From an uncultured Mycoplasmatota bacterium (GTDB taxonomy: Bacteria > Bacillota_I > Bacilli_A > RF39 > UBA660), in contig CAMMTE010000001.1 of the NCBI GenBank assembly GCA_946499755.1, forward strand, positions 1-28,551: DNA of 28,551 nucleotides. The letters run 5' to 3'. Numbering within the stretch: the stretch's first letter is position 1; the number at the start of each line of letters is the position of its first letter. The translations under genes were made by a program, and so were the position numbers. Below, piece by piece: positions 4,705-22,927 of this stretch. Under the pieces are notes generated by a model. The model did not search any database. It was not told where the DNA came from and was given only the letters and a program-made list of their open reading frames with translations.

Positions 4705-4736
4705 AAAAAGAACTAAGTAATTTAGCTACTTAGTTC
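4705..4736 (-). terminator. Intrinsic terminator overlapping the stop codon of the DGR-target gene
   Basis: GAACTAAGTA-7 nt loop-TACTTAGTTC (10-bp perfect stem) followed by TTTTT. Confidence 0.8.
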
Positions 4737-6606
4737 CAAGAATAAATGGATCAGTTTTAGTTCCATCCCCTCCTGTTATTACTACATTGGATTTTAGATT
4801 TATGGATGGCCGGACACCGCCCGAAATGGTCGGAGCGCTGTAGTACGCAATGCCATCGTAGTACACGTAACGCACGTAAGACGAACTATATGGTGTTAAG
4901 GTCCAATAATTAGTTGTTAACCCTGTACTTGAATAGCTACCTTTTACGGCATATCTTTCAAATTGTCCCGCCATTAATTCTCCAAACCTTAGTAATCCTA
5001 CTTTAGCATTTGTAGTAGTAGAAACTGTACTACTCATATTAGTATCTGTATATTTGGCTAGTTTATATGAATCACTACTTCCTACTGTTCCTAGATACCA
5101 AGTTGTACTATCTTCTATCATATCACTATAAGCATTTCCTACATAATTAGTTAGATATTCCCCATTTAAAAATGTTCCAATTGTATTTGTACTTGAAAAT
5201 GTAGTTGTATCTCCAAATGCACTTATTATAAATGTTCCAGAATTTTTTAGGGGTTCAGCACTAGTTATCTTAGTCAAACCTAAAGTCTCATGACTTACTA
5301 TTCTATATAGATTATTCTCATCATTTCCAAATCTTACATACTCACCACTATATCTACTTGAAAGTAATGTACCTGATAGACTTGTATCATTATCTCCTTC
5401 TAAGCGATAGGGATTTTCTATTGTTCCATTACCATCTACGATACGAACGCTAGATTTTAGATTTATTGATGGCCGGACACCGTACGAATCGGCCGGAGTT
5501 TTGTTGTACGCAACGCCATAGCCGCTCACGCCACGCACGTCAGACGAACTATATGGTGTTAAAGTCCACCAAGTAAGACCATTATTTAAATAACCATTAC
5601 CATATGTAGTTCCTGTATAACTTGTCTGATATTCATATATATTTAAAAGCCCCACGGCTTTGCTTACTGTTGTTGTTCCATTTGGTCTTGTTATACTTCC
5701 TAGACTAGTGGCATCTAATGTAGCATCCCATACTGCATCTGTTACTATAAAGTCCCCATAATTTCTTAAATTACCCAAAAAGCCATCAACACTTGTATCA
5801 TTTAACCATTCTTCCATATAACTTCCTTCAAAATTAGTTTGATTATCAGGATTATAGTTAATTGCACTTATATTCCACTGTGTTACTAACTTAGTAGTAT
5901 TCGCTTCTTTATTAACAGATACTGCTCTCCATAATTTTCCACTATACCATATATAATTATTAGGATCTTCTCCAGTTATAAATGTATCTATCCCATCATC
6001 ATAAAGATTATCTTTAGGTATATTTGCTAACAATGTTTCTGCTACTGTTGGTCTTTCTTGAGATACTTCTACTCTTAACTTACCACTAAATACTTGACCT
6101 GAATAATTTCCATCTACTTCATCTGTTATCCAGAGATTTAAACTATATTTATTAGTTCCTCCTCCTTCTATAGTTCCACTATCTAAGACTCTATTAGGGT
6201 TAGTTCCTGTCTTAGTTAAAAGTGTCGCTCCACTGTCAGTTCCATTCTTATTTAAATTATACTTTAAATACTTATCATCTATTCTTGTATCAGTATCACT
6301 TATTGTATTATCATCTAAATAAATTGTATAATCTACTGCTTTATTCCCATTATTTCTTAATTCAAATGTTGATCCATCTAAAGACATACCTTTACTATCA
6401 CTTATACCTACTGCATTATCTAAACTTATCCCTTCACTTGTTTCATCTAATACTAATTCTAACTCTCCTACTTTTACTATTTGATCTTTACCAGATAATT
6501 GTGTAGAAAAGTATGCATATGTAAGTGCAAGTAATAGAATTATTACTATTAATATACTTATAACTATTACTGTTACCTTTTTCTTTTTATCGTTATCTTT
6601 TTCCAT
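4726..6606 (-). CDS. Surface protein: TasA/camelysin-like N-terminus plus two tandem DUF6273/C-type-lectin-like domains; putative DGR target
   Basis: Basic N-terminus, hydrophobic helix and ALTYAYFS cleavage-type motif. Two homologous domains end in WWTLTP..GVRPSINL and YWTLTP..GVRPSINL, a motif typical of Bacillota DGR target domains. Domain names come from motif recognition, not a search. Confidence 0.75.
   Translation of the reverse strand: MEKDNDKKKKVTVIVISILIVIILLLALTYAYFSTQLSGKDQIVKVGELELVLDETSEGISLDNAVGISDSKGMSLDGSTFELRNNGNKAVDYTIYLDDNTISDTDTRIDDKYLKYNLNKNGTDSGATLLTKTGTNPNRVLDSGTIEGGGTNKYSLNLWITDEVDGNYSGQVFSGKLRVEVSQERPTVAETLLANIPKDNLYDDGIDTFITGEDPNNYIWYSGKLWRAVSVNKEANTTKLVTQWNISAINYNPDNQTNFEGSYMEEWLNDTSVDGFLGNLRNYGDFIVTDAVWDATLDATSLGSITRPNGTTTVSKAVGLLNIYEYQTSYTGTTYGNGYLNNGLTWWTLTPYSSSDVRGVSGYGVAYNKTPADSYGVRPSINLKSSVRIVDGNGTIENPYRLEGDNDTSLSGTLLSSRYSGEYVRFGNDENNLYRIVSHETLGLTKITSAEPLKNSGTFIISAFGDTTTFSSTNTIGTFLNGEYLTNYVGNAYSDMIEDSTTWYLGTVGSSDSYKLAKYTDTNMSSTVSTTTNAKVGLLRFGELMAGQFERYAVKGSYSSTGLTTNYWTLTPYSSSYVRYVYYDGIAYYSAPTISGGVRPSINLKSNVVITGGDGTKTDPFILGTK
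4790..4905 (-). repeat. Putative DGR variable repeat VR-C (C-terminal); variable core 4819-4878
   Basis: 116-nt ungapped copy of 5453-5568 with 20 mismatches, 18 of them in a 60-nt core. Core is 55% GC in an AT-rich gene. Confidence 0.85.
5453..5568 (-). repeat. Putative DGR variable repeat VR-N (internal); variable core 5482-5541
   Basis: In-frame partner of 4790-4905, offset 663 nt (221 codons). Core is 60% GC. Confidence 0.85.
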
Positions 6607-21644: not shown

Positions 21645-22208
21645 TTACCAAAGTGACATTTTCTTGGTTCTATCTTCTTTTCTTTCATCACTTGTTTCTT
21701 TATTTCTAATATCTTCTAAGGCAACTTTAAAATATTTAGCGGCAAGTTCATCATCAATATCAGGTTTAGCTTCTTTTATTTTAGAATATATAGATATTGC
21801 TAAATCTAAATTGCAAGTAAGTTCAGTATCTATGCCTTTTTCAATACCAAAACTCAATCCTTGTAAATAACTAAGCATTATCTTTTGATCCTCAGAAAGA
21901 GTACTGATATCTCTATCCCTAACATTTTCATTCAATCCGCATTTCATACATCCTTTTCTTCTATAAGTATGGCCACCATAATCTTCACTAACTGTTTCAG
22001 TATATACTAAAATATGGTCACACGAATCAAATTGTTCTATTCGTAGTTTTCGATATAAATCGTTCTCTTCCTTATAAATTTTTTCACGTTGTTCTTGTAA
22101 AGTAAGATATCTCTTAACTACTTCGCTTTCTTCTAAAGCTTGCAACTCTTTACTAATATTTTTTCTTTTTCCTTGTACTTCTTTTAATTCTTCCTCTAAT
22201 TCACTCAT
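21645..22208 (-). CDS. Hypothetical protein, coiled-coil plus CxH..CxxC putative Zn site (paralog A)
   Basis: SD GGGAGGG and extended -10 promoter. Motif CDH..CMKCG. Similar to 22337-22927. Confidence 0.7.
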   Translation of the reverse strand: MSELEEELKEVQGKRKNISKELQALEESEVVKRYLTLQEQREKIYKEENDLYRKLRIEQFDSCDHILVYTETVSEDYGGHTYRRKGCMKCGLNENVRDRDISTLSEDQKIMLSYLQGLSFGIEKGIDTELTCNLDLAISIYSKIKEAKPDIDDELAAKYFKVALEDIRNKETSDERKEDRTKKMSLW

Positions 22209-22336: not shown

Positions 22337-22927
22337 TTAATTCCACCTATTAAAATCTCTTCTTAAACCTAATCTTTTCGCTCTACTCTTCTTTCTTTCA
22401 TCACTTACTTCTATATTTCTAATATCATCTAATGCTATCTCAAAATACTTAATAACTGTTTTATCATCAATATCAGGATGATATTCTCTAATCTTTTTAT
22501 AAAGAGCCATAGCAAGTTCTCTATCACAGACTATATTTATATCAGAATCATCATTATAATCATGCTCTTCTAAAACAGATGCCATAACTCTCTCATCAAA
22601 AGAAAAACTGTCTTCTTTTCCTCTATTAGATAATTTCATGGTTTTATCATTTATACCACATTTAACACAAAAACAATCATATTCACCATATTCATTCATA
22701 GAAAGACCCCATAAGTGCTCACAGTTTTCATACTCACCATATTTCATTAATCTATATAGGTTTTTCCTTTTAGTAGCTAATTCGCTTTTCTTTTTTTGTA
22801 GTCCTAAATATTTTTTTACTATCGGAACCTCTTCTAATCCCCATATTTCTTGTTCTATTTTTTTATATTCATTATCTATATCACTAAAGTCATCCCTTAT
22901 ACATTCCAAATCTTTTTTACTAATCAT
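22337..22927 (-). CDS. Hypothetical protein, coiled-coil plus CxH..CxxC putative Zn site (paralog B)
   Basis: SD GGAGG. Motif CEH..CVKCG. C-terminal 55 aa are 30/55 identical to paralog A. Confidence 0.7.
   Translation of the reverse strand: MISKKDLECIRDDFSDIDNEYKKIEQEIWGLEEVPIVKKYLGLQKKKSELATKRKNLYRLMKYGEYENCEHLWGLSMNEYGEYDCFCVKCGINDKTMKLSNRGKEDSFSFDERVMASVLEEHDYNDDSDINIVCDRELAMALYKKIREYHPDIDDKTVIKYFEIALDDIRNIEVSDERKKSRAKRLGLRRDFNRWN

Follow-up and report, generated by a model that had tools for sequence, protein, structure and literature searches.

Two Probable Diversity-Generating Retroelement Variable Repeats, One at the End of Each Tandem DUF6273 Domain, in a Chromosomal Gene of a Chicken-Gut Candidatus Onthousia Bacterium

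What process leaves a gene with two copies of the same short segment that differ almost exclusively at the first two positions of their codons? The question is raised by gene P0001, which lies at positions 4726 to 6606 of the minus strand in a 28,551-nucleotide stretch of DNA (the window) and encodes 626 amino acids according to the list of open reading frames (ORFs) and the translation. The window is contig C1 of a genome, G000, assembled to 1.15 Mb in 138 contigs (27% GC, 68% complete). The host is a Candidatus Onthousia bacterium from the chicken gut with 27% GC and a genome of about 1.2 to 1.5 Mb. The best explanation, which we consider likely as a whole, is that P0001 would be a cell-surface protein in which two DUF6273 (C-type-lectin-like) ligand-binding domains are arranged in tandem and that its two repeats are variable repeats (VRs) of a diversity-generating retroelement (DGR), located in the last beta-hairpin region of each domain.

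The repeat pair is the outstanding direct repeat that a repeat finder detected in the window, with in-frame copies at 4760-4912 and 5423-5575 that are spaced 663 nt apart. BLAST aligned them over 116 nt at 83% identity. An earlier note on this DNA, made from the sequence alone, had described an in-frame pair of 116 nt within one gene and had quoted the core of each copy; the description was correct and the quoted cores were exact. Both copies are GC islands (0.53 to 0.62 GC) in a gene that elsewhere has about 0.3 GC. We designated the internal copy VR-N (5472-5550, minus strand, hypervariable core 5482-5541) and the C-terminal copy VR-C (4809-4887, minus strand, hypervariable core 4819-4878). 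These coordinates delimit the 79-nt, template-homologous stretch AGT..CGGC over which the signature counts were taken. Both were defined by scaffold-pattern matches and signature counts, and VR-C additionally by an ortholog in another species. Each DUF6273 domain ends in one of these 79-nt GC-rich, adenine-poor repeats, and the 150-nt stretches upstream of the modules show no relationship to each other (ungapped identity, 33%).

VR-N and VR-C differ at 18 of the 79 positions. Codon position 1 accounts for 11 of these mismatches, position 2 for 6, and position 3 for a single one, a bias that departs from a uniform spread (P = 0.007). In the core, 12 codons differ nonsynonymously and none synonymously; there are two synonymous changes in all, both in the flanks. 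This recount agrees with the 18 mismatches, 17 of them at codon positions 1 and 2, and the 12 nonsynonymous codons of the earlier note. Its further claim that C or T is invariant at third positions holds elsewhere in the core and fails at a single codon pair, AAA/AGC, the sole third-position difference, which its own figure of 17 of 18 already implied. Adenine occupies 6 of the 61 invariant positions, compared with 24.6 expected from the composition of the gene (P = 1.4e-7), and none of the 61 scaffold positions differs between the two copies. The GC content of third codon positions (GC3) is 0.63 to 0.67 in the VRs and 0.12 in the rest of the gene. The pattern is real and far from chance.

A DGR origin of both repeats, which the earlier note had proposed in the form of adenine mutagenesis, is strongly supported because the scaffold is free of adenine, the variable codons are exclusively of the NNY type, 20 copies carry the same scaffold, an ortholog agrees, and the genome encodes a reverse transcriptase (RT) cassette. 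The scaffold pattern consisted of the invariant bases of the window's repeats with N at the variable sites, and the reversed pattern served as the control. In G000 the pattern matches the two repeats only. Genus-wide, 20 distinct copies in five Candidatus Onthousia species fit it with 0 to 3 scaffold mismatches (reversed control, no copies), an identity of scaffolds that is partly by construction since the copies were picked by this pattern. Eleven same-scaffold copies are in one genome, G053. All 22 hypervariable columns of the 20 copies fall at codon position 1 or 2, and adenine has the plurality of the bases in them (A, 209 of 440; G, 104; T, 101; C, 26); of the 35 invariant columns, a single one is adenine. 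The third base is C or T in 236 of the 240 variable codons, none of which is a stop. Stop-free NNY codons derived from AAY and set in an A-free scaffold are a feature of DGRs. Internal and C-terminal copies have a common scaffold while the upstream domain sequences cannot be aligned.

Unlike the copies chosen by scaffold pattern, a positional ortholog offers an unbiased check. This ortholog, on contig C2 of G053, is identified by the same downstream AI-2E transporter gene. Its VR-C is identical to that of P0001 at 43 of 43 scaffold positions and at 12 of 23 variable bases, and the 2 kb of DNA around it is 78% identical (scaffold versus variable, P about 2e-5). The comparison of orthologs that the earlier note had suggested favors a DGR origin. 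A scaffold that is perfect across species argues that homing would be recent on an evolutionary scale. Confinement of variation to the repeat is seen between species and between paralogs. For example, the close paralog P0003 (L069:179-2065) is 99 to 100% identical to the P0001 gene for about 300 nt before VR-C and 65 to 80% identical in the repeat cores. P0003 was considered as an allele of the P0001 gene and was set aside as a paralog because its flanks differ. Aligned to P0003, window positions 4726-6606 form a mosaic in which blocks of 100% identity alternate with blocks of 60 to 80%. This mosaic structure points to frequent recombination among family members, which comes on top of the DGR signature.

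It might be asked whether such recombination makes a retroelement unnecessary, the modules being paralogs kept alike by gene conversion while positive selection diversifies ligand-contacting residues. The family is indeed large, with at least 13 two-domain paralogs in G000, and the mosaic paralogs (100% blocks beside 60 to 80%) mean that recombination among copies occurs. However, conversion would homogenize the variable sites too. Selection leaves unexplained the A-free invariant positions, a GC3 of 0.65 versus 0.12, the 98% of variable codons that are NNY without stops, and the plurality of A in every variable column. Furthermore, the same segment of 37 to 38 codons that is GC-rich and A-poor in the G000 copies on contigs C1, C8, C13, C101, and C103 has ordinary AT-rich codons in those on C30, C62, C64, C65, and C134. 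Because AT-rich paralogs use ordinary codons in this segment, the odd composition of the repeats is not required by the protein fold. A template is also seen directly in relatives with sister scaffolds, as described below. Conversion and selection without a retroelement are thus a very improbable source of the pattern.

An internal repeat could also be produced by a chimeric or collapsed contig, and contigs of G000 often end at repeats of this kind (C13, C103, C101, C6, and C21). However, the gene is also present in an independent ENA assembly, where it differs by 2 nt that both lie outside the repeats, long Logan contigs of other studies cover the gene, and hundreds of homologs have the two-repeat architecture as well. 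Genomes of the genus contain as many as about 20 copies of the module, which are almost invariably paired at a spacing of about 650 bp. We attach next to no probability to an assembly artifact.

Two RT genes are present in G000, on contigs C6 and C18. The C6 RT (C6:20280-21230, minus strand) matches RVT_1 with 74.6 bits. Its best match among solved structures is 8ub7_A (E = 4.8e-20), a 328-amino-acid RT that is presumably from a Bordetella phage; PIGNYTSQF of the C6 RT aligns with PIGSLTSQL of 8ub7_A, and the YMDD motif is intact. The genome that carries the repeats therefore also encodes an RT of the DGR clade. Directly upstream of the C6 RT and overlapping its start is a 113-amino-acid Avd-like ORF, whose size and position are kept in three related genomes (G015, G006, and G023) and on the ENA contig L072. 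A further small ORF, the homolog of an ORF of about 117 amino acids (ORF117), lies upstream of the Avd-like ORF. An exact-protein look-up in other assemblies had neither the C6 RT nor the Avd-like protein on record. Contig C6 ends, at 21823, about 590 nt upstream of the RT.

The relatives show what would be expected beyond that end. In G015 (Candidatus Onthousia excrementipullorum), G006, and G023, a two-repeat gene of the family is followed about 1.1 kb downstream by an RT with 89 to 92% identity to that of C6, and L072 has the same arrangement. The template of these relatives is a noncoding, A-rich copy with flanks of its own, positioned between the stop codon of the target and the small ORF; VR-C precedes it by about 260 nt and VR-N by about 900 nt. 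The fraction of mismatches located at template adenines is 13/13 for VR-N and 10/11 for VR-C in G023, 14/17 and 15/19 in L072, 14/22 and 13/19 in G015, and 14/29 and 12/18 in G006, counts in which several of the nonadenine mismatches fall in the first few bases beyond true homology. These mismatches are direct evidence that in this cassette family one template gives rise to the internal and the C-terminal repeat of one gene. The earlier note had assigned both repeats of P0001 to one template. For the relatives this proposal stands, as the G023 and L072 counts illustrate; for the P0001 gene itself it is supported by analogy, and it rests on the relatives because a template with the scaffold of this gene was found nowhere.

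Homology between repeat and template stops at ..CGGC. The conserved 3' flanks that follow, beginning CATCAATAAATCTAAAATC after VR-N (5452-5471, minus strand) and CATCCATAAATCTAAAATC after VR-C (4789-4808, minus strand), were defined by template/repeat alignment and by comparison of the 20 copies, among which they are nearly invariant. The flank of VR-N is a candidate target-recognition element. The GC-rich 3' end GGTGTCCGGC is present in the repeats and common to the templates.

The proposed mechanism follows known DGRs. A noncoding template repeat would be transcribed, and the DGR RT with its Avd-like partner would copy it into cDNA, misincorporating opposite template adenines. The cDNA would then replace each variable repeat separately, which would turn the AAY codons of the template into NNY codons and restore the A-free scaffold as it was. 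The template is predicted to be AGT ACG TCT AAC GTG CGT AAC GTG AAC AAC AAT GGC AAT GCG AAC AAC AAC ACT CCG ACC AAT TCG AAC GGT GTC CGG. The enzyme would most likely come from the C6 cassette (ORF117 homolog, Avd-like gene, and RT) and act on the P0001 gene remotely. We infer that the missing C6 template would carry the scaffold of the window and that the DGR may still act on the P0001 gene.

Several observations, in addition to the selection of the 20 copies by pattern, weigh against this interpretation. With 17.9 bits (E = 0.0045), the match of the Avd-like ORF to bAvd falls short of the 40-bit cut-off, and the ORF has no NCBIfam match. There is no significant hairpin or cruciform 3' of the repeats, where the 90 nt after each repeat folds like shuffled sequence (z = 0.06 and 0.37). 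A template with the scaffold of the window was not found in the genome itself or, with exact and degenerate patterns, in four same-scaffold genomes or in 185k species genomes, the last a search that recovered the G015 template as a control. Nor did these patterns find it in JGI metagenomes, for which both metagenome scans came back empty, control included. A template-junction pattern applied to 53 genomes of the genus detected family templates in 12 of them, none with the window's scaffold. The nearest family template, in G043, has 7 to 8 nonadenine mismatches to the window's repeats. Lastly, variation between samples at the VRs was not seen in the Logan contigs of four studies or in the second assembly, contigs that are consensus sequences in which minor variants are hidden. 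A hairpin after the repeats is unsupported as a feature of the element; hairpins are not known to be universal among DGRs.

The sample comparison bears on strain-level variation at the repeats, which the earlier note had expected of two independently varying sites and which was not seen at the level of contigs. Contigs from run X2 of study P1 (3400-5124), run X4 of study P2 (3570-5070), and run X6 of study P3 (4727-5315) cover VR-C with 0, 0, and 1 difference, respectively, and a contig from run X7 of study P4 (5441-5720) covers VR-N with 0 differences. The dominant repeat sequence is the same in all sampled populations. However, the sampled strains are near-clonal (0 to 2 differences per 1.5 to 1.9 kb), and because the flanks are equally identical the power of this test is low. 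Short contigs that have VR-N flanks with a different core do exist (joints 5475>5543 and others), and they are indistinguishable from paralogs.

These results raise the possibility that the repeats are fossil, or orphan, VRs that a DGR once wrote, whose matching template has since been lost or changed, and which are now fixed and evolve as ordinary coding DNA. The identity of the repeats in four studies and the second assembly fits such a history, as does the failure to find a matching template in any search. Decay of a cassette also has a precedent in G000, where C21:27-120 is a decayed template remnant, apparently of a cassette without its genes. In addition, the G000 repeats on C13 and C103 fit a template of the G023/G006 type at 81 to 85%, a type to which the C6 template may belong. 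However, the scaffold of P0001 has not decayed: it matches the ortholog of another species at 43/43 positions amid neighboring DNA that is 78% identical, and it differs at 0/61 positions between its two copies. The lack of change among near-clonal samples says little, and minor variants are invisible in contigs. Moreover, G053 has 11 copies with this scaffold, and there too the contig with the RT is interrupted where the template would be, which suggests a failure of assembly over loss of the template. Fossil repeats are therefore possible, though on this evidence we judge them unlikely.

Judging from the relatives, the template would be expected about 330 nt beyond the end of contig C6. The contig with the orthologous RT of G053 begins about 900 nt upstream of the RT, and most public contigs with a C6-type RT are 1 to 5 kb. 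Close homologs of the C6 RT are on short contigs, and the longer ones (L072 to L074) have other scaffolds or no template. The gap probably arises because a template with many near-copies interrupts assembly. Contig ends in G000 at most about 100 nt from variable repeats or the template site include those of C13 (16684), C103 (4583), C101 (4714), C6 (21823), and C21 (its start). The repeat family appears to be one of the main reasons why this assembly and those of relatives are fragmented.

P0001 was compared with Pfam DUF6273 (PF19789), which it matches in two stretches with 35.9 bits (gathering cut-off, 23.5), and most of the 120 homologs listed have a precomputed PF19789 match. The internal domain comprises amino acids 196 to 395 (5422-6021, minus strand) and the C-terminal domain, defined by the second Pfam stretch and by a tblastn comparison of one domain with the other, comprises amino acids 396 to 626 (4729-5421, minus strand). 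The two domains are about 40% identical in protein sequence. An AlphaFold2 model of the single internal domain, built from 56 diverse homologs, is of high quality (pLDDT, 94.5; pTM, 0.90), and in this predicted structure VR-N encodes the last three to four beta-strands, residues ~160 to 182 of 200. The model has 21 matches to phage proteins at E ≤ 1e-3, mostly annotated as DUF6273 and some as receptor-binding or tail-fiber proteins. Its best match among solved structures is PDB 9qa6, a domain of an IgA peptidase of Thomasclavelia ramosa (E = 5e-6; TM, 0.61), which suggests a fold used by gut Bacillota for recognition of host proteins. Classical C-type lectin domains are matched weakly by the model (E about 1).

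Amino acids 1 to 195 (6022-6606, minus strand) comprise a lysine-rich start, a transmembrane helix, an "AYFS" motif, and a beta-sandwich. The full-length model of P0001 has a helix at residues 6 to 36 followed by strands, a low-confidence prediction (pLDDT, 60). It was unfit for fold assignment, and the single-domain model was used instead. The N-terminal part has a weak match to Peptidase_M73/camelysin that is below the cut-off (E = 0.0056). In the low-confidence full-length model it also has weak fold matches to donor-strand pilins and archaeal filament subunits. That this part may be a TasA-like, possibly fiber-forming module is a lead, not a result. The neighbors of the P0001 gene are housekeeping genes, for an AI-2E transporter, FtsQ, MurB, and MurG, and the gene is therefore chromosomal and outside any prophage.

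The DGR of Bordetella phage BPP-1 (Mtd, Avd, template repeat, bRT) is the prototype of these elements, with adenine-specific mutagenesis of AAY codons and a VR at the end of a lectin-like fold. The system described here is like that of BPP-1 in its adenine-specific AAY mutagenesis, in a VR at the end of a domain, in a small helical accessory gene before the RT, in an RT with IGxxxSQ and YMDD motifs, and in a GC-rich 3' end common to template and VR. In contrast to BPP-1, the repeats of P0001 have no 3' hairpin, the target is remote, the template precedes an extra ORF (~117 amino acids) and the Avd-like gene rather than lying between avd and RT, and the Onthousia accessory protein matches bAvd weakly. 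Cellular DGRs of the Treponema denticola/Legionella type have several remote targets with one repeat per gene and lectin folds of the FGE or DUF1566 type. The Onthousia system resembles them in having one cassette, many chromosomal surface-protein targets, and a common scaffold (11 copies in G053), and it differs from them in the two repeats and the DUF6273 domains of the P0001 gene.

DUF6273 has been published as a target domain of DGRs, and its C-terminal end holds the variable region (PMC10743442; PMC11792537). In gut phages such targets include tentaclins and small targets of nd4/nd12-like phages (PMC10743442) and proteins of the Faecalibacterium prophages Lelie, CP11, Roos, and Pioen (PMC11792537). 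P0001 shares with them the Pfam domain and a variable region at the C-terminal end of the domain on a surface beta-hairpin; in the phages one template can serve two variable repeats, as would be the case for P0001, and the domain model of P0001 matches phage DUF6273 and receptor-binding proteins. However, the gut-phage DGRs have their two repeats in two genes of a prophage cassette, whereas both repeats of P0001 are in one chromosomal gene, which is flanked by murB, murG, ftsQ, and a transporter gene, is far from the RT, and is a member of a gene family with 13 or more paralogs. The N termini also differ, being a membrane anchor and beta-sandwich in P0001 and immunoglobulin (Ig) domains or a tail module in the gut-phage targets.

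Several variable repeats in one ORF were reported for 31 of 271 multi-VR DGRs (PMC6642488), and four genes with two VRs have been described (PMC11661182). More than one repeat from one template per ORF is a feature of those cases and would be one of the P0001 gene. Unlike P0001, some of them have adjacent or overlapping repeats or are atypical nonadenine cases, and the two surveys do not describe tandem domains with one repeat each. DGRs, DUF6273 as a target, one template for several repeats, and several repeats per ORF are already published. Specific to P0001 are one repeat at the end of each tandem DUF6273 domain in a chromosomal gene far from the cassette, together with the genus-wide expansion, the extra small cassette ORF, and the absence of a hairpin after the repeats.

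The P0001 gene would provide a clean cellular, nonphage case in which a DGR writes to two sites of a single protein, in a small-genome genus of chicken-gut Bacilli with a massively expanded target family. DGR finders that need template, VR, and RT on one contig miss such systems because short-read assemblies break at the template. Such systems can be recovered, and their template predicted, by searching paralogs and several species with a scaffold pattern. Should the system be active, proteins of the P0001 type are candidates for fast-changing surfaces of interaction with the host or with phages in the poultry gut. A more speculative proposal, which we regard as doubtful, is that a single, systematically unassembled template drives a multigene repertoire of up to 11 same-scaffold repeats in at least seven genes per genome, each protein bearing two independently diversified lectin-like heads on a polymerizable TasA/camelysin-like module, so that hypervariable surface fibers would result. 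If true, this fiber repertoire would be the counterpart, in a reduced-genome gut bacterium, of a combinatorial receptor repertoire.

Other retroelement sequences were encountered in G000 and its relatives. Contig C18 has a complete classical DGR (C18:5546-10040) with an RT and an Avd above the NCBIfam cut-off. The template of this DGR occupies C18:8017-8124, another A-rich copy lies at C18:7018-7134, and the variable repeats are at C18:5546-5659 and C25:2394-2510; 72 to 81% of the mismatches are at template adenines. This DGR was rejected as the donor for the P0001 repeats because its template belongs to an unrelated sequence family. A genome-wide screen for adenine-biased repeat pairs, noisy at 27% GC, found the C18 system and no template for the window. 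Relatives have RT paralogs of other types with unrelated templates, and the templates beside those RTs were likewise rejected as donors as members of unrelated families.

The remnant at C21:27-120, which starts AGTACGTCT..TGCGTAACG, has a 5' flank 100% identical to that of the G023 template. It diverges after about 40 nt and, as a decayed remnant, was discarded as a template. The remnant is joined directly to what on C6 comes after the RT, and also to a PDDEXK_2-like gene, and from this fusion it looks as if a second cassette in G000 has lost its ORF117, Avd, and RT genes. Genes of about 300 amino acids with weak PDDEXK_2 matches are regularly found 3' of the cassette RT (L009:278-1222 for C6, L072:3205-4101, and L073:1628-2554), and the one at C21:340-1212 follows the decayed remnant as the others follow cassette RTs. 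The PDDEXK_2-like gene may be a component of the element or a preferred neighbor.

Proteins with more than two stretches of the DUF6273-family domain also occur. P0270 and others have 3, 4, or up to 14 in tandem, and one protein reaches 4,905 amino acids. Elsewhere in the window, a 144-nt direct repeat with 70% identity (21664-21807 and 22377-22520) lies in the adjacent minus-strand ORFs 21645-22208 and 22337-22927, which are probably tandem paralogs.

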